Source: Dipteris shenzhenensis (lineage: Eukaryota). Taken from it: DNA of 64,000 nucleotides. The stretch lies in assembly GCA_047967505.1 (NCBI GenBank), contig CM106538.1; one strand, given 5' to 3'. The position numbers and the translations under genes were made by a program. Below, piece by piece: positions 14,858-60,816 of this stretch. The notes below the pieces were generated by a model. The model was given only the letters and a program-made list of their open reading frames with translations. It was not told where the DNA came from and ran no database searches. Every line of letters begins with the position of its first letter. Position 1 is the first letter of the stretch.

Positions 14858-14891
<34 letters not shown>

Positions 14892-34779: not shown

Positions 34780-34890
34780 GTGTGTCTTAGTTGGATTGGA
34801 CGTGGCAAGCCAAAGTGGCGCGTGGAATGCCTTTTTCAAATGACATGGTGCCACATCATTCTTGGCGTGTCATTTAACTGAGTATAACGT
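34780..34890 (+). promoter_or_regulatory. Putative acetate kinase promoter with ABRE/G-box-like elements in a CpG-retaining island
   Basis: ACGTGGC 34800-34806, CGCGTGG 34819-34825 and GCGTGTC 34865-34871 lie 150-220 bp upstream of the ATG. Confidence 0.45.
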
Positions 34891-35018
34891 GTTTGTGCAC
34901 TCTCTCATCCTCTGCCTGCCCAGTCATTGCAAACAAGACGCGTATCTTTGGCACCTCGGAGCTCCAGTCCAAAGTTCCAATTCCGGACTACCATTCCTTT
35001 GCCTTCGCGCAGTTTTTG

Positions 35019-35065
35019 ATGGCTCGATCCGTGCTCGTGCTCAATTCTGGAAGTTCCTCCCTCAA
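35019..35065 (+). CDS. ACK: Acetate kinase exon 1 (MARSVLVLNSGSSSLK; acetokinase N-terminal phosphate-1 signature)
   Basis: ATG at 35019; VLVLNSGSSSLK matches the acetate/butyrate kinase signature; phase-2 donor AA|GTGAGC at 35066. Confidence 0.9.
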
Positions 35066-37736
35066 GTGAGCCCGCTTTTCCCTCACCTTCTCGTCAGATT
35101 TCAGTCCAACACTAGTTTCGCATTCAATTGAAGGCGGTCTTCAATGCGGCCCCTCCTAATCTGCTGTGCCGTTACACAACTTCTGCAATGTGTGTTTGTC
35201 CCTAAGGGCACGCGATGGGTGTGCATCACGATGAGAAGCTCATTCTAGGTTTCGTACCCTATTTCATGCATCAAAATCTGGTCGGTGGCTCCCTACTGAG
35301 CCTCATTGGGCAGTACTCTCGTGACAACACCGGAATCGACCGATCTGTACATTTTTCTTGTGCATTTGGTGGTTTTAGTCCTCTTAGCTACCTTCAAAAG
35401 GACGAAAGTCTTTAACTGGTCAGCAAGAAGAAAGACGCTCTGAAATGGAGAAACCAGAGCTTCAACGTCTGAAGGCTAGCAGTGTTAAGCACTCGTTTTG
35501 TCCGATCTCTACTACAGCCGTGGAAGGAAAAAGAGCATGCTTTCGTAGTGTGAAGAATAAGGACGTACAGCCATAAAAAAACTATTGAGAGGTATCAGTC
35601 CAACGTGGAGGAAAATTGAGGTGCCTTTCTCGATGCCCGCACTAGTGAAACTTGGGCTACTTTTAGGTTCGTGTTTACAAAACCACATTTTTGTCCTCGG
35701 AATTAAGCGTTGGGGGATATATGACAGCTTCTGTCAATCTGCCATGTGGAGGATAATCTGAATGTCAGCTGTGCAGAAGGGTATGGGTACTCCTATGGTG
35801 CACAATATCTATTTCTTTGACTCAAGGGCATCCTTTGTTCGTGTCAAATTTATTTATTACAGCTTGGGCTACCATGTTCTTCTTTACTAGCTGCAAAAGT
35901 GCCTCAATTTTGGATTAGTTTTTTCTGTGCGGCTACATCATCTGTACTACAGCCTTAGAGGTGCTTATTCTATAGATGCTTGATGTTGTTGCAATGGACT
36001 TTTGCAAGGCCATGACACTCATCCGATGCTGCTCATGTATCATTATAGGATTGTTACAGCTGCTCTCCCATCCATCTATTCACCTTTTAATTTCTCCATT
36101 TTTGAGATCTAGTTTTGGTGTTAGATTCCTCAGTTTGGCAAAATTTTGTCACACCCATGTGCCAGCCATGTGGGTTGAATGCATCTCCTCTAACACCAAC
36201 GACATATATCAGAATCATGATCGTAAACATGTCAAGTGAGCTACTTTAACACAAGCCGATTTTGAACAAATATGGAGAGAGGAGAGGAAAAAAGTGGAGA
36301 TGAGGAGAGAGGGCATATCTAGAGAGCACATCTTAAAATACTAATTGTACACTAGTATTAGCTGAAAAGAATGAACATATACAAACCCCTTTAGGGTCAG
36401 GCTTAGGGTCTCCAACCCTTTCCTTTTTAGCACTCTATGTGTTAGTGCTATGCACATATGATAATACATGATGTTGAGATGGTTCCTCAACACCTTTTTT
36501 CAAGATCAACATCATGAAGTAGGCCTTCTCCCAAGATGATGATTCTGGGAATCGAAGAAGGATTGAACATTACATTCCATCACACCCTTAATGGGAATGT
36601 TCTTCCTCTGCGTCAAACCAAGAGCGTGTTGGTGTTTTTTAAAAAGCTTTTTCCCAAGTGGTTTGGTAAATATATTTGCAACATTCTCTTTGTTGTCACA
36701 ATGTTGTAGTGTGATGTTGAAGGGTTGGTGGACATTTTTCTTTAGAGGCTAACTGTCGTATTTTATTTTATAGTGCTTTAAGTATATGGTTAAAGGAATC
36801 AATGTCAAGGTCCTTGTTGAGGGCGAACGGGCACTGACTAGATGGTTCTAAGGTGAGGGGCCTAGGTATACCAAAGTGTGTAATTGCCAAGGGGCAAATG
36901 GAATGAAGTGATACTCCAAGAAAAGGGTAAATGGTACATCTAAGGATGGCCCTAGGAATGTGACATGTGGCATGTAGAACCATCTAGGGAGTTGTGGGCT
37001 TTGTGTACAGCTTGCAGGAGAATTAACACATAATTTAGAATCGAGATTGATGTCATGAAGATTGGTTGGGAGGATTATCATAGTGCCATTGCCTGTGATT
37101 AAAGGAGAAATTGTATTCCTGCGTTTCATTTTGGTGTATAGTTACCTTGGTCGTTTCATTTGGTATTAGAGTCGGTGATTGAAAAAGGCGATTGTGATGA
37201 GAGAGTACACATCGTTTTAATTGCATACAGAGGTGGTGACTCGAGTGTCTTAAAGTATGCGTCGTTTTCATGTATGACTCAAACCTAGGGCTTTAAGGTT
37301 CTGTTACCAAAATCCTCAACAAAGAATTCTACGATCGAAAAGGGGCTGCGGTCGATTGAATAAGAGAGCATCGATGGCTGCATAACTGAGTTTTGTGGGG
37401 GCAAGGCAAATACAAACAAGGAAAGATAGAAATTTGGAAGGTCTTAGAGATGATATTGTTGTGGGAAGTGACGGGGCTACGGCAGTTACAACAGCTAGTA
37501 ATAAGAAGCTAGTGCAAAGGAATTCATATGGTGCATTGCTACAATGGGAATGGGCTTTGCGGTAATAAACTGTTGGAAATTACCCAACAGAGGGTACACA
37601 GCGGAAGACTAATAGAATTGCCTAGGAGCTCACACATTGTGGTGTGGGGTGTTAAATCACTAACTTCTTAAACTTATGTGCATGGAATAGATGTGCAGAC
37701 TCATCAATAGATAATGAACCAGCCAGATAGAGAAAT

Positions 37737-40700
37737 TGTAGGCCATCTTCTGGTGGTTCTAGTGATGTCCTATAGGCCATGGTATGTGCCTTGTAGGCAT
37801 AAATGTAGGCACTTGTAGTGTTAGTGCCCTTTAGGCCACATAGGATACTTAGTCCTATGTGACACCTAGGACACTTAGTCCTAGGTCTAGGTACAAGTAC
37901 CTTGTACTCCTATTTTTCATTATCCTAAGTGTCCTAGGTGTCACATAGGACTAAGTGTCCTATGTGGCCTAAAAGGCTGACGTGACAGACTCGATCGACT
38001 TTTTGCAACTTGCACTCTCTCTTTGCCTATCGATCCTACAGTGGTATCAGAGCAAGGTTTGACTCGTCTTCCTGCCCCAAGACTCCTTGTTGTACCTATC
38101 CGTACTGGTTTCCTATGTCGTACAGATCTGTACCTCCATCGTACTTGTGCAGTACAACTTTCGAATTTGAGCCGCCGTACAGCAATATAGTTGCGTGTCT
38201 GTGACACCGTACGTTAGACTCCGTACACGAGTACTTGTTATGTACATGCGCCGTACTAGAGTCATTGTACTTGCGTTGCCGTACAACTGTACGTATTTGC
38301 GTCGCCATACAACTGTCACCGTACCTGCGCCAATCTACGTATCTTCTGCACCTACATTGCCGTACTGCCCGTACAGATTGTTGTGCCACACTACGTACAT
38401 CTTCCGTACCGGCACGTGGGAACGTATTGTTCCGTACAATTTTTAATACTAGATCCGTACTTCAACCGTACACCGTACGGTGTACTTGATATGTACTTCA
38501 TCCGTATAGTTATTGTACACTGTACTTGAGCTGTCCGTACAGCTAGTACTTCTTTCAAGTGATCCCCGTACAGATGGTTGCACGTACAAGGTTACATTGT
38601 GGACATTGGTATTTTTTGGGGCTTTCAGTTCATTTCAGCTTCTTTGGTTGCAAATTCCTGCAAGAACATTGGGGCTTTGGGATTTGGTCTGCAATTTCTC
38701 GTTTAATTGCAATACATTGGGTTAGATTGGAGTACATTGAGTCAGATTTTCAGACATTGAGTCACTTCTGCAGGACATTGAGTCAGATTTGCATACATTG
38801 GGTCACATTTGCAAAAATTTCAGCAAAATTTGGGGCTTTTCTGCATTTGCCCATTTTTTGGCCTATTTGCCCTCAATAAATTTGGGGCTTTTGCCATATT
38901 TGCTATTTTTTTGAAGTGAACATTGCCTGTCACAGTCACATTTGGGTCAGATCTGCATTTGACCTTTGATTTGGGTCAGAAATTTGCAGATATTTGCTGT
39001 CATTTTTGGACAGCCAGCTTTTTGCAGTGATAGCCTTGAGGCTTTTGGGTTTTCAGGTCTTTTTCAAGGTATCACATTTGGTATGGCTGGGAACAATCAA
39101 GATTTATTTGGAGTTCTTCGTGAAGATGATAAGTTGGATGGCACCAACTATCCGATGTGGTCTTATCTCATGAAACATATTCTTGTTGCAAAGCATTTGT
39201 GGAATATTGTTTCCGGGGCTGATCTGAGGCCCAGCCAATGCTACAGTGGTTGCCTCTACTGCTGGTCCTTCTGCAGGGGGTACTCCTCCTGATGCCTCTT
39301 CCTCTAGCACTCCTGTTGCTGCTCTTCCAACTCAAGAACAGTCAAGATGGGATGCAAGAGATGCAAATGCACATTCATGCATTGCTTTATCATGCAAGAG
39401 AATGATTATTCCACCCATCCGGTCTTGCAGGACAGCAAAGGATGCTTGATAAATTGGCTTCTCTCTATCAGATTCGCAATGAAGATCGTGTTGCATATTT
39501 GAGAAGGCAATTACAGGAAGTCAGTCTGAATGAAGGTGAGTCAATGGATGCATACTTGACAAAGGTCAAGGACCTCGTGGAACAGCTTGCCAACATTGAT
39601 GCGGTGGTACCAAATTCACAGCTTGTTAGTGCCACATTGAATGGACTGCCAGATGCATATCAAGGGTTTGCTACAACCCTTTGATTAGTGGCCATGGGTA
39701 ATCCAGACCACTATTCTTTTGATCAGCTAGTTACTTTGCTTTTGCAGGAAGAGCAAAGTAGAGCTAATAGACAAGCCATTATTCCTGATCATGCATTTGC
39801 TTCACAGCAGACAGGAAGAGGCAAGGCTTCCAAGCCTATGGGCAAGCCAAAATTTGTGCATAGCAGTTGCAATTCCTCCCATGCATCTAAAAATACAGCA
39901 GATAAGGCAAAGAAGAAAAGATGCAACTATTGTCGCAAGCCTGGACATGACATTTCAGAATGCAGGAAGTGCATTGCTTCAGAGAAAAAGAAAGCAGGAT
40001 TGACAGTTAATGCCTCTCATGTTATTGAATCCCATGAGCCAGAAGATGCTTCACATGCACATGCTCTTCAAGATGATTGGGCATGGGCTGTCCATTGCTC
40101 ATTTGATCCATCCAAAGCTGATGCATTCTTTACTGCTAATGATGCTCAGTCCTGGTACTTTGATAGTGGTGCTTCCAAGCATGTCACATCTTGCAGACAG
40201 TTGTTTCATTCTTTAGCTGATGCACCTCGAGGGGGAACTGTTACATGTGCTAATAATGCTTCATATGCTGTAAAAGGAGTTGGAGATGTGCAGCTCACAT
40301 CCATTTCAAGCCATCCTGTCACTCTGACAAATTTCTTTTTATGCTTGGCATTGAAGTCAACTTGATTTCAATTTCAGCAATTGCTACTTCAGGTTTTAGA
40401 GTGATTTTTGATGGCTACAGATGTCTAGTTTATGATCTTCGTGATGACAATGCCATAGTTCTCACTGGCATTTTGGCAAAAGGGCTTTATCACCTTGATC
40501 ATCATTTAGCTGCACTTTCTATTGAAGCATTGGCTATTTCAGATTCACAGCTTGCTGAAAGTCATCTTTGGCATGAGAGAATGGGCCATCTCAATTATAG
40601 AGCTCTTGCAAAGCTACATTAACAGCAGATGGCAAATGATGTACCTCAGACTCACACAGTTTCCAAACATGTGTGTGAGGGTTGTCTTTTGGGTAAGATG

Positions 40701-43160
40701 CATCGATTTCCTTTTCAAAAGAATTGTCCAAAACTCTTACAAAGGAAATTGCAGCTAGTACACAGTGATGTCTGTGGCCCAATGAGGACAAATGCCATTG
40801 GGGGGTATAAGTATTTCATGACTCTCATTGATGATTTCATAAGATATTGCTGGGTATATCCTTTAAAGGCTAAATCTGAAGTTTTCTTATGCTTTCAGAG
40901 ATGGCTGAATATGGTTGAGAATGAATCAGGATGCAAGCTTGTCACCCTCAACACAGATGGGGGGGGAGAGTATATGTCAAAGGAGTTTGATGCATTTCTG
41001 TCTTCACGGGGCATTATTCACTCATGCACTTCACTAAGCAATAATCAGCCACAACCTCATGCTGATTTGCAGGTTTCTCTTCCGGTACAAAATGATCCCA
41101 CTACTCATGATGCAGTCATTGAAGAAAGAGCTGTCAATAGACAGCAAAGGCAAGTTCCCAGATGGCTTCTTGATACATTGAGGGACAGCAACAAGATCAG
41201 CCTTTTGCTGCCCGGACAAGATCAGGGAACAGACAGCATGGTCACTTCCTTGAGTTTGCACTCCTTGCTACAGCTTGCAATGAAGAACCTCTGTGCCATA
41301 AAGATGCTTTTGACAGCAAAGAGTGGATGGATGCAATGAGAGCTGAGTTACAATCTATTGCCAAAAATGACACATGGAAATTAGTAGATCTCCCTCCCGG
41401 CAAGCATGCCATTGGAATGCGGAGGGTCTACAAATTAAAAAGGAAATCTGATGGCAGCATAGATCGATACAAAGCCCGTCTTGTTGCAAATATGCCCAAC
41501 AACAAGGCATTGACTTTAAGGAGACATTTGCTCCCACATCCAGGATTACTACCATTAGATGTGTCATTGCCATTGCAGCCCATCATCATTGGCAAGTGCA
41601 CCAACTTGACATCAAGACCGCTTTTCTTCATGGGGATCTGCAGGAAGAAGTCTATGTCACACAACCTCGTGGCTTTGAGGTTGTTAATTCTGAAAATAAG
41701 GTATGCCGGCTTAGAAAAGCCCTTTATGGTTTGAAGCAGGCACCCAGGGCATGTATGCCAAAATTCATGCACACTTACTATCCCTTGGTTTTCAGAATAG
41801 TCCCACAGAACCCACTCTTTATGTCCGTGGGAGTGGATCTGATTTTTTAGTGCTGATTTTATATGTGGATGATACGCTTATCACGGGCCCAGATACTCAG
41901 CAAATTGCAGCTTTCAAGGCTGATTTGCAGCAGGTTTTTGAAATGTCAGACATGGGACAGCTCCATTATTATTTGGGCATTCAGTTTGCTCATGTTAAGG
42001 GGGGTATCATGATGTCTCAGTCCAACTATATTGGACAGGTCCTTGATCGTTTTCAGTTTGAGGATTGCAAGCCAATCTCTACTCCAGTGGACCCTGGCTT
42101 CAAATTCTTAGCTCATGATGGGAGCCCACCATGTGATATCACTCTATATCAGCAGGTTGTTGGATGCCTTATTTATTTATGTCACACCAGACCTGACTTG
42201 CAGTATGCAAAATCTCAGCTCAGCAGATTCATGCACATGCCCAGTTCACAGCATTGGCAAGCAGTGAAGAGAGTCTTCAGATATCTCAGAGGCACTCAAG
42301 ATTTAGCCCTCTTCTATAGTGATCAGGGTTCAGTTACCATGCATGCTAACACAGATAGTGACTGGGCAGGATGTTCCGACACCAGAGTGTCACATACTGG
42401 CAATTGTTTTTTGCTTGGCAATTCATGCATCTCTTGGCTCAGCAAGAAGCAACCAACAGTTGCCACATCTAGCTGTGAGGCTGAGTACAGGGCAGCTTTC
42501 ACCGCTACAGTGAAGTGTGTTTGGCTTCGACAGTTACTTACAGATCTTGGTATTCGCCAGACATATTCTCTACACTGACAGCCAGAGTGCTTTGGCCATT
42601 GCACGTAACCCAGTGTCTAATGCGCGTACCAAGCATATTGAAGTTCACTATCATTATGTTCGGGAGCGGTTGTCAGCAGGAGACATAGAGTTGTCCTATC
42701 TTCCCACAGAGGACAACATAGCAGATATGTTTACAAAGGCACTTCCTCGTCCCAAGTTCGAAGTCTTCCGACAGGCTTTACACTTGGTTCCTTTTGTTAC
42801 ATGATGTGACATCCCTTGTACATTCATAGGTGGCTATATCCTTTTGGATGAACATGTGCCACCATGACCAGAAAATACCAGGTACTCTGAGACGTTTCCA
42901 GAGTACTTCAGCCCATCCTATGGAGGGTGGTTTGTAGGCCATCTTCTGGTGGTTCTAGTGATGCCCTATAGGCCATGGTATGTGCCTTGTAGGCATAAAT
43001 GTAGGCACTTGTAGTGTTAGTGCCTTTTAGTTTACATAGGACACTTAGTCCTATGTAACACCTAGGACACTTAGTCCTAGGTCTAGGTACAAGTACCTTG
43101 TACTTCTATTTTTCATTATCCTAGATTTTGACGTGACATACTCTATCGACTTTTTGCAAC
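37737..43160 (+). mobile_element. Ty1/Copia LTR retrotransposon C (integrase C-half deleted; 3' LTR truncated)
   Basis: 5' LTR 37737-38040 (TGTAGG...CTACA); PBS 38042-38053; gag KLDGTNYPMW and CNYCRKPGH; protease WYFDSGAS; RT YVDDTL; RNase H SSCEAEY; 3' LTR from 42933. Confidence 0.93.
38090..38590. repeat. CGTAC/GTAC-rich array in Copia C leader
   Basis: About 30 GTAC tetramers in 500 bp by manual count, mostly as CGTAC. Confidence 0.9.
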
Positions 43161-44066
43161 CACCAAAAAAATATATTTCCGTCCAAAGCTATGGATACAA
43201 TACAAAAGAGAGAAAGATCTAGAGTCCCACCAATGGTGTGGTCCTCTGATCTTCCCACAAGGTCCTTCTCCTATCTGCCAGCTATCTCTAGACTCGAGCC
43301 TGCGTGCTCCACCTCGAGCGTAAGTAGCCTATCCATCCAAAGATCACAACACCTTGCTGCCCTAGAAGACAGCCAAGGTCCAGCCTCTAGGGAACTCAGT
43401 CTGCAACACACCTTTCACTCTCTTTCACCCCCAGTGTGAGGCCCAAGGGAGTGGCTTCTGGCTGCTTCTGTCTGCTCCTGCTCTTGCTGAATGGTTGGAT
43501 GATGAATGAGGCCCAGAGCCTCTCCTTTTATAGGCCCAAGGCCTTGCTGCAAAACCGACCAGAAGGGGGAGTTCTGGCTGACCCACTCAGCCCCTCCCTG
43601 ACCGACTTTGGTGCCTCAAGGGCCTTTGGCCTACACTTCTTGGCAAGGCCCAGCCTAGTATCCAGCCTATAAATAGGCCTGGTTGGCTGGCTCTACCCAG
43701 CCCAACCAGCCTGTCTAATCAGGCCGACACTTCATGCTGCTGTCCCGCCTTCTTTGCACCATGTGGCACTACCCCGTACAACCCCATACACTGCTGATGT
43801 CACCTGCCAGCTCATTGGCTCTGTTCCAGCCTGATTCTCCTGTGCAGATCTGCCTCAACCAATCCTAGACAGCCACTTGGCCTTTCTAAGCCCTTGCTGT
43901 CCTCCATGATGTCTTCCATCGGCCAGGTTCTCTCTTTGGTTTCTGCTTACATGGCAGCCCATGTGGTAGCCCCATGCTTTTCTCTGGGCATGTTATGCCC
44001 TAGGTCTCCCTCCCCCATGCTCTCCTCATATGGAGGCTTATAGATGGGGAGGTGACCTTTCCAACA
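43161..44066 (-). mobile_element. Partial solo-LTR-like insertion
   Basis: Minus strand begins TGTTGG at 44066 and has a TATA box (CCTATAAAAAGG); non-coding; other end truncated. Confidence 0.45.
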
Positions 44067-47000
44067 AAAACACAGTTCTTAAGGCTATTGAGCATCTATA
44101 GGTTTGAGTCACGGATGGGAGTGCCCAAGCATGGACTAATTGTGGGCCAAGGGTAGGCCAAAGAGTGAGCCAAAGGAAAGTGCAGGTTGCTAGAGCACGT
44201 GCTGGCTGGGATAGGACTGAGTCACAATTGAAGCTCTCTCTCTCTCCACACAGGCTGGCTGCTCCAGAGGACCTGAGTCAGTGGGAAATCACAAAAGGTT
44301 GTAAAGGGGTTGGACCTTGCATGCCAACTGAGTTCTTGAATGGTGGATTAATTTGCAAGGTTCTTTGACGACATACTTTACAGGCCGTAGAAGGACGTTC
44401 AATTTATAGTGGAGAAGCAAGAAATTGAGCAGGGAGCTTTCTTTTTTAATTTAAATCTCAATCTGCCTGTGTTATAAAATTGCAGAGTTTTTTAAATTAC
44501 AGCAGTAGTTTTTTCCAATTATTTGAGATTGCAGGTATTTCCCTAGTATAGGGAAAAATAGTTGGCAGACTACAGACATATGCTTGTATAGCGGGACGTT
44601 TTGGGAGTGTGGTATTTGCTTGAAGATTTCAGTTTGATTAGTGTGTGTTAAAAAAAAAACCCCCCTACCTTATGGATAGAGGCAAAGCAATAGCAATGGA
44701 AGTTAAAGAAGAAGCTTCTAGGGTGGATCCCGTAGAATCGGGAATCCGGCCGATCCCACAGGTATTGCATCCAACAGCCCATACACTGTATGGTAGAATT
44801 GCCTTATTAGAGGATGCCTTGCAACAGATTTTGGCTCAGCAGCTGCAAGCTAATGTAGGACAATCCGAGCTTAGGAAAATGGTTCATAGTATGTCTACTA
44901 GACCATCTCATAAGGAGAAAAGTAAAGCTCCAATGGAGCCTGAAATCAGTGTTAGTGTTCATACGGTCGAGCCTCGGAGGGCTAAGGTGCCACCCACATA
45001 TTTAATGAGGCAGCGGATAGATGGTGGATAAAACAACAGAGGGATGGAGTGGCATCCACTACTTAGGAGGGGTTCAAGAAAGAATTCAGAAAACACTTCT
45101 TGCCTCTTGGTGAAGCATCTCGAGCTTGGGATCAATATAGAAACCTTCATCAGAGAAATTTATCAGTGATTGAATACATTGATAAATTCAGAGAAAGTGT
45201 AATGAAAGTTTATGAACCTTTACCTCAGTTGGTATAGGTAAAATCTTTTATTTGTGAACTGAATGATCGGATCAAGATGGAAGTTCGGGCTAAGTATGCG
45301 AACACTAGTATGCGAACACTGTAGATGAAGCAATTGCCATAGCCTTGAACTATGAGGATGCCAAAGGAAACATCCTCAAACTTCGAATTCAGGAATGTCG
45401 CCCTGGGTAAGGCTTGGCATTGTAAGAAGAATCTAGCCATAGATTGGAAAAAGCATATCTATCAGTTCAAGCTGAACGATTTGTTGTATGTCTTGCAAGG
45501 TGAAAAAGATTTGCCTCAGGGATCGTTAGTTTCCGTAATGGAAGTTCGCAAAACTCAATAAGAGTTCTTGTTTCTTTATACAGCATCGATAGAGCCGATT
45601 GATGGTCCATCGGCTAGCACTGATGTTACTCGAGATGGGGAGATGGCCAAGTTGGTTGATCATATTGTAGAGGAGTTCTCGGATTGTTTAGTTGCCTTAT
45701 GGGTTACCTGTAGAGTGGACTGTTCAGCATAAGATTAAACTTATGCTGGGAGGCAGAACAAGTAAATAGACCTCCCTATAGATTAAGGTTTACTGAAGAA
45801 GCTAAGGTGCGAAGGCAACCTCAAGCTGGGGCAGATTCAGCCCAGTTTCTCACCTTTTGCTTCGCCAGTGATATTGAAGAAAAAGAAAGATGATACTTTC
45901 CACCACTGTATAGATCACTCATGCAGGAGTTTAACATGACGATTCGGTACCGAAGAGGGACGAATAAAGTTGCTGATGTGTTGTCACACGTAATGCATAA
46001 TATGAGTTTCACGCTATTAGAGAGTGCTCTAATGGGTGAGATTAGGAAACTCAAAAGATAGATGAGTTCGCATCCAGAGTCTTTGGCCTAAGACACGTGT
46101 GCTTAAACCCGGGGAAAAGAATGACTTGGCATCCATAAAAGGCCAAATTTATGTTAGATATAACATAGGGCATGATATGCTGAAAAGAAATGGCAAGGTA
46201 GTAGTACCTAATCAGAATGATCTCAGGCAGAGAGTCATTCAACAATGCCATGATAGCCCGTGTGTGGACATTAGGGATCGAGAAGACATATGATCTTGTG
46301 AAACAAGATTTCTTTTGGTAAAAAATAAAAAAACATATTCATGAATGTGTGACAAGCTATTTTTCGTGTCAAGTGAGTTAAGGCTGAGCGGGTGAAGCCC
46401 TTGGAAATACCACTAGGTAGGTGGGAGAGCATTTCCATGGACTTTATAGTTGGTCTGCCTTGTGGTGGTTGATCGTCTTACCAAGATGGCTCACTTCATT
46501 CCGACTAGGGAGTCTGTTAGTGTCCCGCAAGTGGTGGATTTGTTTATTAAACATATATTTTCTTTGCATGGATTACCCAGATCCATAGTGTCAGACAGGG
46601 ATGTTAAATTTATTAGTCATTTTTGGACTTCAATGTTTGAGGCACTAAGGATTGAGTTGGGAATGAGTAGTGGGGATCATCTTGAAATGGATGGTCAGAC
46701 GGAAATAGTCAACCAGACTTTAGAGGATATGTTTAGAGCATATGTTTCATTGAGGCAACATACGTGGAACAAGTGGTTGCCACTATTAGAATTTGCTTAC
46801 ATGTTAGAAAACATTCCTCTACAGGAATGAGTCCATTTGAGTTGAACTATGGTTATAGACTAGCAAATTTAATTGTGGTTGGAACATCTCAGAATAGAGC
46901 TAAGGCATATGCGGATGAAAATAGATCCGTTATAGGGGATTTAAGGAAGGATAATTTTTTTTCCTCAGAATTCCTTCACACTATAAGTCTTTGACTGCAA

Positions 47001-48799
47001 GACAGTGTGCTAAGTTATCACATCGATACTGTGGGCTGTGGTTAATTCTTAAAAGAATAGGCAAGGTGGCCTATAAGTTGGAACTACCACAGGGTTATAA
47101 GGTGCATCCAGTGTTTCATGTTTCTCGTTTAAAGAGGTTTTTGCACCTAGGTGACTCATTGATCGAGGGTGTTGTTTTGTTTCAGGAGATAGAGGATAAT
47201 GCAAGGCATAAACCAAAAAGAATCCTAGAACGAGAAACAACATAGGTATGCAATCGAAAGATACCAACGGTGTTGGTTGCATGGCATGGTCTACTTCTAT
47301 CTGAGGCTACTTGGGAATCCGTATACCAGATGCGGAGAGCTTTCTCAGATTTTATCATGGAGGACGCTGATGCCTGAAGAGGGAAGGAATGTTATGCTCA
47401 AGCTGAGATAACATGACGTTGGAAGGATCGGTGGATATTTTCCTTTAGAGGGCCAATGGTCGTATTTTATTTTATAGCGCTTCAAGTATATTGTTAAAAG
47501 AATCAATGTCAAGGTCCTTGTTGAGGGCGAAGTGGCACTGACTAGATGGTTCTAAGGTCAGGGGCCTAGGTACACCAAAGTCTGTAATTGCCGAGCTTTT
47601 CTTGTCAAACTCTCTTGTACATCTAATGTATCTCAAGACTCTGTTGGCTACATTTCAGTGAGACTGTTTTGGATTTGCCATAAATTGTGTAAGTGAACGC
47701 ACTGCATAACTAATATCTGGCCTTGATAGTCAGATATATAAGAGATCCGATGAGCTGCCGATAGTATTTTTCATTGACTGTAAGATTTCTCGATCTTTTG
47801 TCAGTTCCAAGGGAGTGGTTGCAATCTTGCAATTTGCCATATGAAACTTTTTCAGGAGACTATTCACATATTTTGGCTGGCTCATAAAGGTGTTGTCTGA
47901 GTTTCTCTAGAACTCAATTCCAAGATAATAGTGCATAAGCCCAAGATCTTTCACGTCGAACTTTGTAGATAACTCTTGCTTTAGCTTGCTAATGAAGCTA
48001 TCATTGCTTTCTGTCACAATCAGATCATTTACATACAAAAGTGCAATAGTAATGTCTTCCACTTGAACTTTGTAGTAGAGAGCATGATCTGCATTGGACT
48101 TCATGTATCCCAAATTAGCAAAAATACTTGTCGATTCTGTTATACCAACTTCTGGATGCTTGCTTTAAGCCGTAGAGACTTTTCTTGAGATGGCAAATCT
48201 AATACTCCTTCCCTGGTTCAACATAACGTGCAGGTTGTTGCATGTAGACTTCCTCATCTAGGTAACTATTGAGAAAAGCATTTTTGACATCGAGCTGGTA
48301 CACATTCCATCTGCTGAGTGTCGCTAGTGATATTAAAAAATCATATGGAGTCCATCTTTGCTATTGGAGCATAAGTCTCATCATAATCTTGACCATATTG
48401 CTGTGCAAAACCTTTTGCAACTAGTTTGGCTTTGTATCTTTCAATGCTTTGTACTTCACTTTGTAAATCCATTTGTTTGCTATGGCTTTTTTTCCTAGTG
48501 AAAGGTCGCATAATTCCGAAGTATGTTTTTGTACAAAGCTTTCATTTCTTCATTCATAGCAGTTTGCCACCAGCTCAGGTAGTCCTTCTAAAATGGTGAA
48601 GGGATCCTGCAGCCAAACGGGCACAAGTGAATATTCTTGGAACCCGGGTATGAAGTCATGCTAGAAAGAGGCCTTGTGAACTGAGAGAGAAATTTTTTCT
48701 AGGCTGAGACCTAGACCTACCTAGAATCCTAAGACGGTAACACTAACCTATTGTTTTCCCGTGGGTACTAGTGAAGATGGACTAACTATCTGACTTGAC

Positions 48800-49430
48800 C
48801 TAAGGCTGAGAGACTGACCTACATAACTCGTGCTTGATTGTCCTTGGACAAGGGCTCACAATGGGGTCACGGCATATGACAAAATATCCTATCATAGGAA
48901 CTATTTGGGATGTCTAGTAAGCATACTTTACGTTTTTGAAACAAAAGACCATTCCGAATGGAATACTGATCTTAGATGTCTCTCCCCTAAATCAATTGGT
49001 TAATCTCAGCATGTCCCAACTTGGACCGATAGATAGATATGGCTAAAGTAATGATCATGCTCCTACATGCCTTTAAAGGATAAAAAGAGACCAGTTTGGA
49101 TCTTCGTGAACTTATAAAGGTCACAAAACCTTTGTATCAGATTTCAAAGTTGAAATCTTGCATAAGCTCAGATCATCTAGCCCGTACGGCCATGTAAGTC
49201 TGAAGCTTTATAAGAGTACTTAATTGATGTGTTATCAACACACTCTACAAACTGAGAGCCATATAAATAATGCCTCCGCTTCTTCAATGCATGGATAACA
49301 AATTGTTCCTTTTTATGAGTGGGATATTTGAGCTGTGCTCGTGTCATCTTGAGGATACAGGTTGGACATCCTGAAACAAGCCTGCACCAATGGCATAATC
49401 ACTAGTATCCGTTTAAACCGCCAATGATTT
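48800..49430 (-). mobile_element. Gypsy RNase H fragment
   Basis: TDTSDYAIGAGLFQDVQP...RRHYLYGSQF...ELMQDFNFEI. Confidence 0.75.
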
Positions 49431-49697
49431 ACTTTCATCCACAGATTGCAACATAGCCGTGGTAACCACTACATGGTTCAGCTTTCTGAGGCACCAGTTA
49501 TTTCAGTTGATGAAACTTAAACAGAGTTTTGAAAAAACAAATCAGTGTTTTTGGATTTTATGCGATGCAGCGTTTTTTATTTTTAGTGAATGTGTGGTTT
49601 AGTTCTTGCAATCTAGATATTGTCTTTTTGGCAACAATTATAATGAGTATCTTTGTGCTCTCGCGTTAATGAGTATCTTTGTGCTCTCGCGTGTCAG

Positions 49698-49824
49698 GTA
49701 TGCTCTATACAACCTGAAGCAGACAGCGAATTGCATCTCACAGGGAGTCATTGAGGGCATTGGCACATCAAAATGTTCCATCTCTCATAAGAATTTACAG
49801 CTTGGACAGAATGTCAAAATGCAG
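49698..49824 (+). CDS. ACK: Acetate kinase exon 2 (K/YALYNLKQTANCISQGVIEGIGTSKCSISHKNLQLGQNVKMQ)
   Basis: Acceptor TCAG|G at 49697/49698 completes the split Lys codon in the correct phase; no stops; matches the acetokinase KxxLxx...GxxExIG segment; donor CAG|GTGGGT at 49825. Confidence 0.88.
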
Positions 49825-50300
49825 GTGGGTTGTTTACCATTTCATTCCATCATGCCTCTTTTGCTTTTGCCGTTGGTGCTAGAAGTTACTGTAGTCCTAA
49901 ATCTTCTTGAGGAATGGGTTTCTCAGATGAACATTGTAGAAGGGAATTTGACTGTGTCCATTTGGAGTGCAATGGGGGTCGTTGGCAAAATGCAAGTGCA
50001 AACTATCATGATCTTGTAATCGAATTTTAAATACTTGAGACTTCAGAAACTATGATTTTTCTGAAAAACAGGTTGTGTTACTTGCTTTGATTTGGGGCTC
50101 TTTTTCCATCTTTGTCTCTCTCGATGCTTTGCAATAAATGCCAACACTGTTTGGGTCAAGGTCAAAAGGCATGCCTTTCCCTTGTGGAAGGATCTTTTGA
50201 TCCGGATAAGCTACTCCTTATTTGCCAGGTTAGAACTGTGGCATGACCGAGTATTGTTTTTCAATGCTAGGATGGAAACTAGATTAGTAGTCACTAACCA

Positions 50301-53300
50301 TAGTTAGTGAACTAACTGCGGTTAGGGGGAAAAACCTCTTAAAGAGGGAAAAGTGCCCCTAACTAGCTTATTAAATTACATTGGTCACTGCTGAATTATA
50401 TCTATAATTCTAACACCCCCCTGCAGTGCCAATGTCATGTACAAGGCTGATCAATCACCAAACGGATATAAGTTTAGGGCACTGCGAAATGCCTCAAACT
50501 TTTCACGTGGTAGTGCTTTGGTGACAATATCTGCAACGTTGTCATGTGTGGACACAAAGATCATACTGATCTCTCCTGCATGCAACTTCTCTCTGACGTA
50601 GTGATAGTGAACCTCAATGTGCTTCGTGCGAGCATGAAACATTGGATTCTTTGCCACTGCAATGGCACTCTGACTATCAGTGAGAATTGGAGAAGGACCC
50701 TCCAATCATAGATGAAGATCAGCAAATAGGCATCGCAGCCAGACACATTCAACTGTTGCTGTGAAAGTTGCCCTGTACTCAGCTTCACATGATGAGGTAG
50801 CCACTGTAGATTGTTTCTTGCTCAGCCAGGAAATGCAAGATTTACCCAAAAAGAAACAATTGCCACTAGTGGACTGCCTAGTGTCATAATCACCAGCCCA
50901 ATCTGAATCACTGTAGGCATGCATCTGCAAGTCACCCCCCCTGGGAAATAACAAGCCAAAAGACTTCGTGCCCTGCAAATAACGGAAGATGCGCTTAACT
51001 GCTTGCCAATGCATAGTTTTTGGGCTGTGCATATACCTGCTCACTTGAGATACTGCAAATTGAATATCAGGTCTAGTGTTGCAGAGATATATGAGGCATC
51101 CAACAGCCTGACTGTAAGATGTGGCATCAACTGATTCTCCTACATCATGCATTGTGAGTTTCAGCCCCGGCTCCATGGGAGTGGCTATAGGCTTACAATC
51201 ATGCATGTTAAATCTGTCCAAGAGTTTCTGCACATACTTGGACTGAGACATAATAGTGCCACGTCTCTCTTGAGAGAACTGGATCCCCAAATAAAAGTGA
51301 AGCAGCCCCAAATCTGACATGTCAAAGGTGGTCTGCAAATCAGCTTTGAAATCTGCAATATTATCTTCATTGGACCCTGTGAGCAGTAAGTCATCGACAT
51401 AAAGAAGGATGACTAAAATTCCCCCCCCATCCATCTTGATGTAGAGAGTGCTCTCAGTAGGACTATTGTGCAGCCCCTTGCTGGTCAAAAAGGCATGAAT
51501 CTTGGCATACCATGCACGAGGGGCCTGTTTCAGCCGATACAAAGCTTTGCTTAGCTTGCATACCTGAAGTGCATTTGCTGTAATTTCAAAGCCTGGAGGT
51601 TGTTTGACATAAACCTCTTCCAGCAAGTCTCCATTTAAGAATGCTGTTTTTACGTCCAACTGATGAACATTCCACTCAAAATGTGCAGCCATTGCAATAA
51701 CAGATCGGATGGTGGTCATTCGGGATGTAGGAGCAAATGTCTCCCCATAATCTATGCCCTTTTTCTGAGCATAGCCTTTAGCAACCAGCCTTGCCTTGTA
51801 TCTGTCAATGGAGCCATCTGGCTTCCGTTACCTTGAAAACCCATCGTGTACCAATGGCATGTTTACCTGGTGGCAAGTTTACGACATCCCAAGTCTGATT
51901 TTTCTTAATGGACTGCAACTCATCGTGCATGGCATTCATCCAATGCACATTGTCCTTTGCTTCTTCGAATGTTGCAGGCTCCTCCTCATCGAGAAGAGTA
52001 CCTGCATAATTTGATTCCACTGAATTAGCACCTTCCATGTGCCTTGCTGCACTGCGAGTCCTGCCAGGTAATGGAGCATCAATCTTACTCTCTCTGAGAG
52101 TCTGTAACAGCCAGTTTGGGACTGTTTTTGCTGCATGTATGTCTGCAATTTCTTGCTGAACCACTTGTTCCACTGCCTGTGGAGGTGGCAAGACACCTTG
52201 TGGCTGAACTGGAGCATCGGGAGGTGGCTGTAAATTCTAATTTGCATTAGAATATCAGCAGGGGAACCCAAAGCAATGGGTAGTAACCCCTCAAAAACAT
52301 CCTTTGAAGAAGAAGGCATATGAAATTCAGCCTGAGTGTGAGCTGAATTTTCTGCAAATATCACATCTCTACTGACAATGATCTTGCGTGTAGCAGGATT
52401 GTAGAGACGGTACCCCTTGCTTTCTGCACTGTACCCAACAAATATGCACTTAATTGCCTTATCTGAAAACTTATGCCGAAATTCAACTGGCACATGAGTA
52501 TATGCAAGGCATCTAAAGACTCGGAAATGATCCACTGAAGGCTTTCTCCCATTCTAGACCTCATAGGGTGTTTTTGTTTTCAAAGCCTTAGTGGGAGCCC
52601 GATTTAAGATGTAGTTGGCACACATCAGACCTTCAAGCCAGAATTTGTGAGGCATGTGTTTGCTTTTCAGCATACATCTGTCCATCTCCATAAGAGGTCT
52701 ATTTTTTCTCTCAGCTTTGCCATTTTGCTGAGGGGTCAGCCTCAGTGTGAGCTGATGCACAATACCCTTGCCTTTCAGAAAAGCATCAAAATCTGCAGAC
52801 AAGTATTCCCCACCTCTATCTGTGCGCAACGTCTGTATCTTGAGTCCGGTTTCATTTTCAACCATGGCTGAAAAGTGTTTAAACACCATGAACACTTCTG
52901 ATTTGTGCTTCAGCCCAAAGACTCAAGTGAAATTGGAGTAATCATCAATAAAAGTACCAAAGTAGAGATGACCACCCAATGATGGAGTCCTCATGGGACC
53001 ACAGACATCACTGTGTATAAGCTGTAATTTGCGGACAGCTTTAATTGAACCATCCTTTTTGAAGGGGAATCTATGCATCTTGCCTAAAATGCACCCTTCA
53101 CAGGCATGTGGAGGAGGTATCTCAAGAGGTGGCAATGCATCAACCATAGAGTGCTTCTGAAGCGTCATCACGTTGTTGTAATGCATGTGGCCATATCGGG
53201 CATGCCATAATTCTGCATTCTGCATGGCAGCAGTAGGAGTAGAAACTGCAAGAGCATGGGCTGCTCTTTTCTCAAAAAGATCAAGCTGAAAAAGCCCACG

Positions 53301-55757
53301 CAGCAGAGTACCAGATAATCTCAAGGCATAATCATTTTCCCTGTCTCGGACATCACATTTGTCATCCTCAAAGATGACCTGAAATCCAGCCCTGTTAAGA
53401 GTGGACACCAAAAGAAGATTCTTGGTGATACCAGGCACATATAAGACATCTGAAAGTCTGAAAACTGAGCCATCAATGGGAGTAAGCTCAACTTCTCCTG
53501 TGCCACGTACTGAATATGACGAGTTATTGGCACAAGTGACTTTCTTACCAACGGGAGGTGGATGCAAGGAAGTAAAGAGACACTTCCTAAAAGTGATATG
53601 CTTGGATGCACCGCTGTCAAAATACCAAGTATTCAGTGTTTCATTGACACTGAAAGCAGATGCATCCGTAGAAGAGTCATAACTGCAAGTCAAAAATGCA
53701 TATGTATCATCATTACAAGTGGCTGTACTATCCCGAGCATCTGGAGCAGCCAGCCTAGAAATCTGAAATGCAAGATAAAAAGGCATAATCCTGTCCAACA
53801 AAGTTGGCTGCAGCATCCCCACTGTCAGATGCATGAGGAGCTGAATCTGAAACAACCATACTGGAGCTGTTTTTCTTCTCTTTTGCAAGCCTTTTCCTGC
53901 ATTCTTCAATGTGATGACCTGGCTTTTTGCAGTAATGACAAAAACCCTTCTTCTTGGGCTTATTTGCATCATTTTTAGCCTTTTGTGAAGGCTGTCCTTA
54001 CCCACTGGAAGGCTGATTTACTGATGTCTTTGCCTGTCCCTTTCTTTTTGACTTGAACTTTGAGAGCATAGCTTGTTCACCTGCACGTGAAGCCAAGTTT
54101 TTCCTGGTCTGCTCTTCCTGAAGCAGAAGTCCTATCAACTTATGAAAAGTGAGAGGATTTGCACCCCCCCTCAATGATAAGCTCAGCGAGGTATGAAAGC
54201 TGAGATAAGACTCAGGAAGAGAATTCAGAGTGGTGTTAATCATCTCTGAATCAGGAATTATCTCATCTATGTTCAATAATTGCTCTCTGAGATCTTGTAG
54301 CTTTGTGAGGTGGACTGGCATGGAGTCACCCTCTTCCATATGTGTATTACTTGCCTTCGAGGTCTTACACGACCGGATATGCGGAATGATAAATCTTTTC
54401 ACTGAAAGAGAGATGCATGACAAAGCTAAGGCATCTCGTGAATCCCATCTCTTCTGCTCTGGAGTAGTGGCTTTAGTTGCACCAACAACTTGTTCTGCAG
54501 CTGCACCCTGTGCATGACCTCTTCCACCTCCTTGTTGAGGAGGGGTATTAGGTGCCATACCTGCTGGTCGGATCTCACCCCCATTCACATAATCCCATAA
54601 ATTGCGAGAAATCAGAATATTGCGTACCATAAAACTCCAGAGGGAGTAGTTGGTACCATCCAACTTGTCTTCCTATGAAAGACCACCGAACTGGAAATCA
54701 TTCTGATTTTGCTGGGCCATATCTGAGAAAGAGATTAGTAGATACAAGACTGAATTCCCTTACTGGGAATGAAATGCACAACTCCCAAAAAACACAGCCA
54801 AGCACTGGCTGTAAATGCAACTCAGATTTTTGCACTTGCACTGTCATAATTCTGTCCAAGCATAAAAAAACTCTCCAGAATCTGCCAAAAGTGCTGCAAA
54901 ACACTTCAAGAAAGGCAGTATGAACTGAAATGTCCAAAGTTGCTCTCCCAACACAAAAGCCCCAAAATAGGCTTGAAATTGCAACCAGAAAGGGGCAAAT
55001 TGATCAAAAGCCCCAAATGTTACAAGAATTGCGCTCTGTCTGCAAAAGCCCCAAATTTCACTGCGAAATTGCAGTGTAATTACAAAATCCCTAAATTTCT
55101 TCAAGAAATTGTACTGCAGAATTGAAAGCCCCAAATTTCGAGCTTGAAATTATCTGCAAAGTCCCAAATTTTGTCTGCAAGATTGCAAGTAGAACCAAAA
55201 AGCCCCAAATTTCTGGAGCAGATTCTGCAAATTGATTGCAATGTCTGCAACAAACAGGATGCGCCAAATGTACTCCCAAAAACTGACCCAAATAATGGCT
55301 GTCTGCAAAATGTGCCTGCTTAAGATCACCTGCAAGGTACAGCTTGTGCGCAGGTACAAAGTGTACGGCCAGGTACGATCAATGTATGGATTGCAGGTAT
55401 GATTGGTACGTACGGCGATGATGCAGGTAAGGTTGCAGGTGTGAGCAGGTACAGCACGTACGGCAGGTACGCGTTGGCACAGCAGGTACAGTATGGTCAA
55501 ACAGCTCTGTAGATCAGGTACGTACGGCGTTGTACGGGGACAATTTGTACAGTCGTACGATCGCGAAGTACGACGAGACTATAAGTACGGCTCTGATGCA
55601 AAACGGTACGGCGACGTACGGATGATGATGCAGAAGGTACCACTGATACGGACTGCATAGGTACGGTGGGTACGGCAGAGTACGGGCATGTACGGACGAG
55701 TGGCACAAGTGCAGTACGAAACTGTACGTATTGATTAGGCTACAGGTGCAACCTTGT
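50301..55757 (-). mobile_element. Ty1/Copia retrotransposon D (full integrase, frameshifted; 5' LTR and PBS lost), in ACK intron 2
   Basis: gag DGTNYSLW; protease WYFDSGAS; complete integrase HSDVCG, TDRGGE, QNGKAER, CIFVGYS; RT YVDDLL; RNase H; PPT 50416-50421; LTR edge at 50415 (left boundary approximate). Confidence 0.9.
55330..55740. repeat. GTACG-rich array in Copia D leader
   Basis: Dense GTAC/GTACG motifs, equivalent to the array in Copia C. Confidence 0.9.
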
Positions 55758-56230
55758 TTCAGGACGTTCAACCCATTGTGTTTATTAGTTAGAAGCTAAC
55801 TCCAGCTTAGGTTTTATATCCTACACATGAAAAGGAGCTCTTTGTTGTAGTTCGTGCATTGAAGAAGTGTAGGCATTATTTATATGGCTCCGAGTTTGTG
55901 GTGTATGTGGACAATATATTACTGAAGTACTTCTGTATAAGAGTATGTACTAAAGAAAATCTTTACCTTCTCAAGTCCTTGACTAGTCACTTCCATGTAG
56001 AATCTAGATGCAACTGTGGCTACTGAAATTTATAGGCTCCTTGCATTTGCAGTTTGGCAATTCGATGTGCCTTGCCTCTGAAATTTTTTTCGCACACATA
56101 CTGCTTCGGATTTGCGTGGTCGTAAAGGTAGGTGGTCCGAGCTCATGCAGGATTTCTAAGGGCTGCCACTAATGTGGTGGATGATGGGTTAAATTGCATT
56201 GGTTTTGTGAACTTTTTGAGTCTCATTGAG
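55755..56230 (+). mobile_element. Gypsy RNase H fragment
   Basis: LFQDVQPIVF...YPTHEKELFVVVRALKKCRHYLYGSEF...ELMQDF. Confidence 0.75.
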
Positions 56231-56238
56231 ATCTGAAC

Positions 56239-59200: not shown

Positions 59201-60816
59201 ATTTCCTCTTCTCAGGGGCCTATTGTATCTGCGATGCAGCTTCGGAATATATTAAACAATTCTCATTATGATGTCTATCAGTGTGTTTTGATTCCGCTTT
59301 CTTCATTTGTTGTTTCTGTAATTAACAAGAATGATTTAAGTGTGTTTGAACACTGTGAATTGAGAATGTTGTTAGATAGTTTTAAAGATGTATTCCCTGC
59401 TCAACTGCCGGAAGGTTTACCTCCAGAACGGGCAGTAGATCATCGCATAGACTTAGTCCCAGGGGCTCAACCTATCAGTGTACCACCTTATAGGATGAGC
59501 CAGGTAGAGGAGGATGAGTTAGCTTTACAGCTTCAGGATTACATGAATATGGGCTATATACGCCCAAGTAAATCACCTTGGGGTGCACCTGTCCTCCTAA
59601 GAAAGAAGAAAGATTCTTCCTGGAGAATGTGTATAGATTATAAACGATTAAATAAAGTGACAATTAAGAATCGATACCCTCTACCTCGTTCCGATGATTT
59701 GATAGAACGTTTGGCCGGAGCGAAGTATTTCACTAAGATTGATTTGCGTACGGGTTATCACCAAATCCGTATCTATGCTAAACACATAAATAGGACCGCA
59801 TTCCGAACTAGGTATGGTCATTACGAGTTTCTCGTATTACCTTTTGGTTTGACCAATGCTCCTGCTACTTTTCAGCAGATGATGAACGATTTGTTCAGGG
59901 ATTTTCTGGGGCAAATTTGTTGTAGTGTTCTTAGATGACATCTTGGTATATAGCAGAACACTTGAGGATCACATAGGACACCTCCGGATTGTCTTAGTTA
60001 TACTTGGGACACAAGATTTCTTCTGAAGGTATTAGCATTGATCTGGATCGTATCCTGAAGGTTTTAGAATGGCCTATCCCTCAGACTGTGAAACAACTTC
60101 GTTCTTTCCTAGGATTTACGGTATTTCTTCGGAAGTCTGTGCGTGATTATTCACATATCACGGCACCCTTGACAAACATATTGAAAGGTCGTGGATGCAG
60201 GTCTACCCAGCCGATCTCTTGGAATGATGCAATGAACAAGGCTTTTGAAACCTTGACGTTTTCTATCAAGGAAGGACCCGTTCTTGCATTACCCGATCCT
60301 ACCCGGCCTTATGTTTTAGAGGCCGATGCGAGTGATTATGCGATTGGGGCAGCTCTATTCCAAGAGGCCAGACCTGTAGCTTTCGAGAGTAAGAAGCTAG
60401 ACGACACTCAATATCGTTGGCCCACACTCGAGAAGGAACTTTATGCTGTAGTGTATGCTCTTAAGGTTTGGAGACACTACTTGTATGGTTCAAAGTTCCT
60501 TGTATTGACTGATCATCAGTCAATTAAGTATGTGTGTGATGGATCAGAATTGAGGGGACGGAAAGCTAGATGGGCAGAATTAATGCAAGATTTTGATTTT
60601 GAAATACGTTATCGTAAGGGTTCTTTGAATAGTGTGGCGGATGTCTTAAGCCGAGTTAAGTTTGTAAATGCTTTGTCATTTACGGAAATATCCTCAGACC
60701 TATTTCAATCCTTGAGAGGGCTATACGCAACTGATAGTCATTTTAGTTCTTTTTGGCAGAGAGTCCAGGATGGGAGCTCCATGGTTGACCAGGACTCAGG
60801 GATTGTGCCACCTAGG
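56239..60816 (+). mobile_element. Ty3/Gypsy retrotransposon (5' LTR, gag, protease, RT, RNase H), interrupted by a hAT element
   Basis: LTR 56239-56762 (TG...CA); PBS 56765-56776; gag ALLWW/TWTDF and CFYCEERGH; protease [35 protein letters not shown]; RNase H DASDYAIG. Confidence 0.93.

Follow-up and report, generated by a model that had tools for sequence, protein, structure and literature searches.

Two exons of an acetate kinase gene separated by a transposon-rich intron in a fern or close relative

Exon and intron structure

The window (the whole stretch of 64,000 nucleotides that was analysed) contains on its + strand two short exons that jointly encode residues 1-58 of an acetate kinase (ACK). 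The coding part of exon 1 (35019..35065) starts at the ATG at 35019, and its 47 coding bases give MARSVLVLNSGSSSL plus the AA of a Lys codon, Lys16. There is no in-frame ATG between the nearest upstream stop codon and this one. By direct reading, the donor context is CAA/GTGAGC at 35065/35066. Intron 1 (35066..49697, + strand) is 14,632 bp long, has GT..AG borders and is in phase 2; its acceptor reads ...GTGTCAG/G at 49697/49698, where the G is the third base of the Lys16 codon. Exon 1 plus this first base of exon 2 encodes SVLVLNSGSSSLK, which puts the motif (V/I)LV(L/I)NxGSSSxK right at the N-terminus. Exon 2 (49698..49824, + strand; 127 nt) consists of the third base of Lys16 plus 42 codons, YALYNL...NVKMQ, translated as YALYNLKQTANCISQGVIEGIGTSKCSISHKNLQLGQNVKMQ, and its 3' border is CAG/GTGGGT at 49824/49825. 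Our rereading gave the same borders as the earlier note on this DNA, which had described a 47-nt coding exon with a phase-2 GT donor and an AG acceptor 14,632 bp further on that completes the Lys codon. A perfect tandem duplication of 26 nt (49641..49692, + strand; 2.0 copies and 100% matches in Tandem Repeats Finder) ends 4 nt before the acceptor AG.

Six public sequencing runs were compared with the stretch, of which X1 and X2 share 0.28 and 0.20 of it, respectively, while X3-X6 have next to none of its words. X1 and X2 are RNA by guess only, and their contigs are assembled. The joint 35065->49698, which skips the 14,632 letters from GT to AG, occurs in one contig of X1 and one contig of X2, from two studies, with 59 and 128 letters, respectively, on its shorter side; the junction that the earlier note had predicted between these two positions is therefore found in each of these runs of guessed RNA. 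The X2 contig (record 9, 1,803 letters) was placed on 34915-35065, with two other letters and four gap letters, and on 49698-49825, with one other letter. Its cover of 34915-35065 gives exon 1 a transcribed length of at least 151 nt and a 5'UTR (34915..35018, + strand, minimum extent) of at least 104 nt, the 47 nt being only the coding portion of the exon. Another 1,520 letters of this contig lie beyond exon 2 and were placed nowhere on 34700-50000, and a continuation of this length is compatible with a coding sequence of about 1.26 kb plus a 3'UTR. Since only 58 of about 420 residues fall in the window, we infer from the length of this contig that the rest of the gene is intact. The GT..AG borders and the exact removal in the X1 and X2 contigs (guessed RNA) identify intron 1 as a spliceosomal (U2-type) intron; in principle, a processed DNA copy could yield the same joint. 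Two bins of intron 1 without read-contig cover (35211-36232 and 48497-49518) were excluded from the evidence.

Intron 2 (49825..64000, + strand) opens with the donor GTGGGT and runs off the window. When the window was searched by tblastn with the related proteins P0001 and P0004, only residues 1-58 were found and no exon 3 or later ACK exon: downstream of 49848 no match was better than E ~4, and the other matches across the window were at chance level (E >=0.7). The window thus includes 14,176 bp or more of intron 2, in keeping with the earlier description of an intron of over 14 kb that leaves it. The tblastn match to exon 2 extended upstream to 49672; we rejected this extension as in-frame intron read-through because the contigs join at 49698.

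Transposable elements in both introns

Both introns have been inflated by insertions of LTR retrotransposons and hAT elements. Repeat and Pfam searches found a degenerate Ty1/copia LTR retrotransposon in intron 1 (37736..43123, + strand), whose 192-nt LTRs (37736-37927 and 42932-43123) are 96% alike. Between them, the Pfam domains Pol_BBD, rve and RVT_2 follow one another along the + strand on ORFs at 39685-42575, in agreement with the gag, integrase, RVT_2 order of a Ty1/copia element, but in several frames, so that the reading frames are broken. This element sits inside an outer pair of direct repeats of unassigned strand, which are 89% alike and are possibly the LTR remnants of an older element; the left copy (36712..36891) was found by self-blastn and repeat search and the right copy (47414..47595) by self-blastn. 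The nesting of transposons that the earlier note had seen in intron 1 is therefore plausible. An integrase-core fragment of a second retroelement lies at 46450..46830 on the + strand (Pfam rve, E 1.1e-05, 26.1 bits, under the 32.6-bit cut-off).

Intron 2 contains a Ty1/copia element on the - strand (50494..54672), recognized by Pfam RVT_2 (251.5 bits), Pol_BBD, gag_pre-integrs and Retrotran_gag_2, and it is 67% alike to the intron 1 copia element over 1,468 nt. It is followed by a Ty3/gypsy-type element on the + strand (57278..60915; Pfam Ty3_capsid, Retrotrans_gag, RVP_2, RVT_1 and RT_RNaseH) and by hAT-like transposase ORFs on the - strand (61363..63999; Pfam DUF659, 162 bits, and Dimer_Tnp_hAT, 21.7 bits).

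Assignment to the acetokinase family

With exon 2 alone (42 aa) as the query against 5.8 billion proteins, six of nine candidates matched at E <=10, with E values of 1.2e-14 to 5.1e-12 over 100% of its length. All six are PF00871 proteins of 407-421 aa that start with the exon 1 plus exon 2 peptide. Identity with exon 2 is 86-88% for five fern-clade acetate kinases among them and 76% for the sixth. A chance motif is ruled out by the exon 2 E value of 1e-14. The first 16 residues of P0001, the best relative, are the same as MARSVLVLNSGSSSL plus Lys16, and P0001 scores 474.9 bits against PF00871 (cut-off 22) and 476.9 bits against TIGR00016 (cut-off 293.4). The 42-residue exon 2 query by itself matched no Pfam family at E <=0.01, so it is through its relatives that the gene is assigned to the family.

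P0001 aligns end to end with the solved acetate kinases of Methanosarcina thermophila and Thermotoga maritima (PDB 1g99, 1tuu/1tuy and 2iir; E 1.8e-107 and 3.9e-113). Through P0001, the N-terminal motif is aligned to residues 2-14 of 1g99, and N9, S12, S14 and K16 of the window fall on residues 7, 10, 12 and 14 of that structure, whose equivalents we take to matter for catalysis. In our family alignment, A1, residues L6, V7, N9, G11, S12, S13 and S14 are nearly invariant. The segments GHRVVHGG, PLHNP, FDTAFH, YGFHGTS, TR-GD and P-EE, presumably the catalytic segments of the acetokinase family, are present in P0001 as compared with 2iir and 1g99 and across A1, and they would lie beyond the window in this gene. 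The earlier note had looked to downstream exons for such motifs; the segments are there in P0001, but tblastn found no further exon within the window. Its main claim, a spliced acetate kinase of a non-flowering land plant, is borne out by the exon 2 matches, the N-termini of the relatives and the X1/X2 joint. The window gene is an ordinary member of the acetokinase family, and the window very likely covers the promoter-side end of a nuclear ACK gene with spliceosomal introns (PF00871, TIGR00016) from a fern or close relative, with residues 1-58 carrying the putative N-terminal phosphate-binding motif.

Distribution and descent

Among the matches listed, orthologues named "Probable acetate kinase" occur in Adiantum, Selaginella, Araucaria, Riccia and Chara, and others are recorded as hypothetical proteins in Ginkgo, Diphasiastrum, Marchantia paleacea, Ceratodon and elsewhere; the named orthologues among these matches span ferns, lycophytes, gymnosperms, liverworts, mosses and green algae. 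Every major group of non-flowering land plants that was sampled has ACK. Although the earlier note had called the gene "hidden", its orthologues are already catalogued in public databases, and it is a gene known from those databases and not a new land-plant enzyme. Adiantum ferns are the closest named relatives. Their two proteins, GOP47_0006950 of A. capillus-veneris (UniRef "Probable acetate kinase") and L7F22_022630 of A. nelumboides, are both 86% identical to the window gene in exon 2, share its N-terminus except at residue 2, and belong to PF00871 at 416-417 aa; they come from other species, and the comparison covers the residues 1-58 that are visible in the window. With a fern or an Araucaria query, the best 120 of 8,000 scored candidates, a listing with many unnamed rows, included no named flowering plant, in agreement with the absence from well-studied flowering plants that had been claimed. 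We found no literature on ACK, phosphotransacetylase (PTA) or phosphoketolase in land plants in the searchable papers. The main text of PMC6732389 does not mention acetate kinase, and the available part of the introduction of PMC9983610 (2022) names eukaryotic ACKs only from fungi, Chlamydomonas, Phytophthora and Entamoeba.

A phylogenetic tree of 62 sequences was built by a quick method with SH-aLRT support; its root was not inferred, and some branches are long (Chlorokybus, Spirogloea). The streptophytes (100), land plants (96), ferns plus gymnosperms (97), gymnosperms (100) and ferns (99) all form starred groups, and the chlorophytes branch next to the streptophyte clade (92). Since the tree follows the plant phylogeny, it argues for vertical descent. 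The window gene would then be a vertical descendant of a green-lineage ACK that streptophyte algae, bryophytes, lycophytes, ferns and gymnosperms have retained and flowering plants have apparently lost. We consider it very likely that the locus is a spliced nuclear ACK gene with introns inflated by transposable elements, descended vertically within the green lineage and apparently lost in the flowering plants.

One might suspect that the gene was acquired horizontally in recent times or stems from contamination by bacteria or fungi, given that ACK is mainly a bacterial enzyme and that, among the matches listed, proteins from bacterial metagenomes share about 50% identity with the fern proteins, as much as the chlorophyte ones do. 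However, the GT..AG spliceosomal introns are filled with copia, gypsy and hAT elements of plant type, the tree mirrors streptophyte phylogeny on starred branches, and in the fern-query listing identity declines in steps, from ferns through lycophytes and gymnosperms and then bryophytes to streptophyte algae. Such an origin is thus extremely unlikely. The locus could instead be a dead 5' relic, perhaps still transcribed, in which exons 1 and 2 survive from a gene broken by its transposon load or by lesions outside the window. Each intron does hold several transposable elements, no exon 3 follows within 14 kb of exon 2, and nine database entries of relatives lack the part encoded by exons 1 and 2. 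Against this, neither exon is interrupted and the conserved N9, G11, S12-S14 and K16 are retained, contigs from two runs show an exact splice, the X2 contig continues past exon 2 for 1,520 letters, as a complete mRNA would be expected to, and exon 2 shares 86-88% identity with five fern-clade orthologues and 76% with a sixth; we regard a relic as very improbable.

It is somewhat less improbable, but still unlikely, that this family member uses another substrate or phosphoryl partner and is not an ATP-dependent acetate kinase; it would then be a propionate kinase or depend on PPi as the Entamoeba enzyme does. The top NCBIfam model carries the name "acetate/propionate family kinase", no equivalog model reached its cut-off, and the solved structures that match strongly include propionate kinases. 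The best two of these structures, 2iir and 1g99, are nevertheless acetate kinases, although sequence alone cannot settle the substrate. Butyrate kinase was rejected, its models scoring far below their cut-offs.

Predicted location and function

As an acetate kinase, the protein would catalyze the reaction acetyl phosphate + ADP <-> acetate + ATP. A metabolism of acetyl phosphate with PTA or phosphoketolase as the partner enzyme, as the earlier note had proposed, would be a candidate role in this plant. Residue 4 of P0001 aligns to residue 2 of 1g99, and there is therefore no N-terminal extension; the predicted enzyme would thus lack a transit peptide and probably acts in the cytosol. The M. 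thermophila and T. maritima genes are prokaryotic, intron-less and usually paired with phosphotransacetylase, whereas the window gene has introns. In Chlamydomonas reinhardtii, ACK1 and ACK2 act with PAT to produce fermentative acetate and ATP in the chloroplast and mitochondria, according to the portions available of PMC8003979 and PMC9983610. The Chlamydomonas enzymes are of the green lineage like the window gene, and chlorophyte ACKs adjoin the streptophyte clade, although our alignments contain no Chlamydomonas sequence; they are organelle-located (PMC8003979, as far as available), whereas the window protein starts at its catalytic core with no presequence. Fungal ACK, which works with phosphoketolase (XFP), and the PPi-dependent ACK of Entamoeba are eukaryotic ACKs that operate without PTA (PMC9983610, available part), and both are possible models if land plants lack PTA. 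No fungal or Entamoeba sequences were among the best 120 of 8,000 candidates with the fern and Araucaria queries.

We suggest, tentatively and with more doubt than confidence, that non-flowering land plants from liverworts to gymnosperms have a presequence-less cytosolic ACK in a pathway undescribed for plants and lost in flowering plants. Examples would be a pathway with phosphoketolase, one without any PTA, or a route for acetate activation or acetyl-phosphate signalling. If true, flowering plants would differ genuinely from other land plants in their metabolism. The role of acetyl phosphate in non-flowering land plants is a testable question of modest size.

Gene models lacking the N-terminus

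Nine shorter entries (P0008, P0009, P0027, P0028, P0030, P0031, P0032, P0033 and P0039) all lack the part encoded by exons 1 and 2, and four of the nine come from named genomes: Taxus, Cryptomeria (isoform X2), Selaginella and Ceratopteris. This part does stand at the start of both Adiantum models and of many others, so the expectation that gene predictors would miss it holds for the shorter entries but not generally. Its exons of 47 and 127 coding bases, set among introns of 14.6 kb and >14.2 kb, make the locus a clear illustration of how gene models can lose the catalytic N-terminus to the very large introns of ferns.

Gene structure and splicing

The acetate kinase gene lies on the plus strand and opens with an ATG at 35019. 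Its first exon contributes 47 coding bases (35019-35065), which read MARSVLVLNSGSSSL plus AA, and ends at the donor CAA/GTGAGC, with GT at 35066. The acceptor AG is at 49696-49697, and the next base, a G, finishes the Lys codon; exon 2 (49698-49824) then reads YALYNLKQTANCISQGVIEGIGTSKCSISHKNLQLGQNVKMQ in frame up to the border CAG/GTGGGT at 49824/49825. Our reading of the sequence agrees with the earlier note, which had proposed this 47-base exon, a phase-2 GT donor and, across an intron 1 of 14,632 bp, an acceptor completing the Lys codon. The same note had intron 2 exceeding 14 kb and leaving the window; 14,176 bp of it lie inside, and a tblastn search of the whole window with P0001 (the full-length best fern-clade relative) and P0004 (another database acetate kinase) matched residues 1-58 only, with no further acetate kinase exons. 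A perfect 26-nt tandem duplication at 49641-49692 stops 4 nt short of the intron 1 AG. In the exon 2 frame it begins with ATG and loosely mimics an acetate kinase start, which is why the tblastn match extends upstream of the true acceptor.

The junction that the note had proposed to look for was found. A search of public runs with 49560-49960 returned six, among them X1 and X2, from two studies, with 0.28 and 0.20 of the sampled words, respectively; that both are RNA is only a guess. When their assembled contigs were aligned to 34700-50000 at 90% likeness, one contig in each joined 35065 to 49698, skipping 14,632 letters bounded by GT..AG, with a shorter side of 59 letters in X1 and 128 in X2. 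The X2 contig (record 9; 1,803 letters) covers 34915-35065 and 49698-49825, and its remaining 1,520 letters align nowhere on 34700-50000; such a molecule could accommodate a coding sequence of about 1.26 kb and a 3'UTR. Since the contig starts at 34915, exon 1 as transcribed spans 151 nt or more, of which at least 104 nt are 5'UTR. Formally, an intron-less DNA copy could also give the join, as neither run is on record as RNA; with the intron missing exactly from GT to AG in two studies, spliced mRNA is the best reading. The X2 contig carries an extra GCTT in the 5'UTR behind 34936 (four gap letters) and three other differences, two in 34915-35065 and one in 49698-49825, which point to another individual or a closely related plant as its source.

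Encoded protein

Exon 2 alone (42 residues) gave no Pfam match at E <= 0.01, so the family assignment comes from its relatives. Six proteins of 407-421 residues, among nine candidates, matched it at E <= 10 (E 1.2e-14 to 5.1e-12, 76-88% identity), and all six carry PF00871, bearing out the assignment to the acetokinase family in the earlier note. Two of the six have a named source: Adiantum capillus-veneris, whose protein UniRef calls "Probable acetate kinase", and A. nelumboides. The N-termini of all six are the same or nearly the same as the joined exon 1 and exon 2 peptide. P0001 is identical to the window gene over the first 16 residues. It scores 474.9 bits against PF00871 (cut-off 22) and 476.9 bits against TIGR00016, "acetate/propionate family kinase" (cut-off 293.4), and falls under the cut-offs of the butyrate kinase models. 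It also aligns end to end with the solved acetate kinases 2iir (E 3.9e-113) and 1g99 (E 1.8e-107). Its residue 4 aligns to residue 2 of 1g99, and therefore N9, S12, S14 and K16 of the window protein correspond to 1g99 residues 7, 10, 12 and 14, which we take to be important in catalysis. Overall, this is an ordinary member of the acetate kinase family, passed on by vertical descent.

Distribution and origin

Among the best 120 of 8,000 scored candidates, P0001 was 81-82% identical to Adiantum proteins and 76% to Ceratopteris (over a 242-residue model), followed by the lycophytes Diphasiastrum (67%) and Selaginella (61%), the gymnosperms Ginkgo (65%), Araucaria (63%), Taxus and Cryptomeria (both 63%), and the liverworts Marchantia paleacea, Calypogeia and Riccia with the moss Ceratodon (62-63%). 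Streptophyte algae were next (Chara 59%, Mesotaenium 57%, Closterium 56%, Chlorokybus 50%), and chlorophytes, oomycetes and bacteria stood near 50%. With the Araucaria protein as query, the taxonomic picture was the same, and no named flowering plant was among the matches listed for either query. The earlier note had presented the gene as a hidden land-plant acetate kinase; it is not new, as orthologues from ferns to liverworts, moss and streptophyte algae are already in public databases.

A quick maximum-likelihood tree was built from 62 rows chosen from the 120 matches, with 58 left out; 42 rows were labeled (28 by the source's organism name, 14 by source only) and 20 were others. SH-aLRT support, by a quick method, was 100 for streptophytes, 96 for land plants, 97 for ferns plus gymnosperms, 100 for gymnosperms and 99 for ferns, all starred branches, and chlorophytes adjoined the streptophytes (92); the tree is unrooted, and long branches were flagged (Chlorokybus with Spirogloea). 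The pattern reads as vertical descent, apparently followed by loss on the flowering-plant line, rather than as a recent transfer.

Annotation in other genomes

The claim that the gene is hidden held only in part. All nine shorter database entries that we read lack the part encoded by exons 1 and 2, but many other models include its motif, namely both Adiantum models and those of Diphasiastrum, Ginkgo, Araucaria, Marchantia paleacea, Ceratodon, Chara, Mesotaenium and Chlorokybus. P0008 and P0009 start right after the missing part, and the first residue of the partial Taxus model is exactly the one past the exon 2 border. In Cryptomeria isoform X2, Selaginella and P0030 the N-terminus is unrelated or shortened, and the first residue of P0031, P0032 and the Ceratopteris model lies much further along the protein. 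Named genomes stand behind four of the nine, P0027, P0028, P0033 and P0039 (Taxus, Cryptomeria isoform X2, Selaginella and Ceratopteris), which lack the N-terminal motif; annotation truncation at large introns, or an alternative isoform in one case, is the likely cause. The other entries are short contigs and may simply be incomplete. The interest of the gene is modest and lies in what it teaches about annotation and in the role of acetate kinase in non-flowering land plants, which no paper found here discusses.

Predicted location and function

Ahead of 35019 the reading frame contains a stop and no additional ATG, and in the alignments the relatives begin at the catalytic core, from which we infer that the enzyme would be cytosolic. 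Acetate kinases interconvert acetyl phosphate plus ADP and acetate plus ATP. The spliced transcript form and the family N-terminus with its conserved residues are seen directly; that the window enzyme would catalyze this reaction follows from knowledge of the family. According to the introduction of one paper (PMC9983610), the partner enzyme is phosphotransacetylase in bacteria, Chlamydomonas and Phytophthora and phosphoketolase in fungi, and the Entamoeba enzyme has no known partner; no land plant is named there. A literature search, with subscription journals mostly outside its reach, returned no paper on acetate kinase in land plants, which is weak evidence of absence in print.

Repeats in the introns and upstream

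A degenerate Ty1/copia element occupies 37736-43123 of intron 1; its 192-nt LTRs are 96% alike, and Pol_BBD, rve and RVT_2 keep their order, though they are spread over several frames. The intron also has a weak integrase fragment under the Pfam cut-off (46450-46830). A pair of outer repeats of about 180 nt, 89% alike (36712-36891 and 47414-47595), encloses both. This arrangement fits nested insertion, as the earlier note had described for this intron. By Pfam, the part of intron 2 inside the window holds a copia element (about 50.5-54.7 kb, minus strand), a Ty3/gypsy-type element (about 57.3-60.9 kb, plus strand) and hAT-like ORFs with DUF659 and Dimer_Tnp_hAT (61.4-64.0 kb, minus strand).

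Upstream of the gene, several Ty1/copia fragments (RVT_2, rve, Retrotran_gag_2) lie on both strands at 4540-19189, and ORFs of 130 residues or more revealed no other host gene. The first kilobase or so of the window (1-1084) is a CT-rich, low-complexity array (period 8, TCTCTTTC-like), and strand skew is strong over 1-2000 (GC skew -0.48, AT skew -0.58). At 19483-19887, a 212-nt unit is present in 1.9 copies with 100% identity, pointing to a duplication of very recent date.
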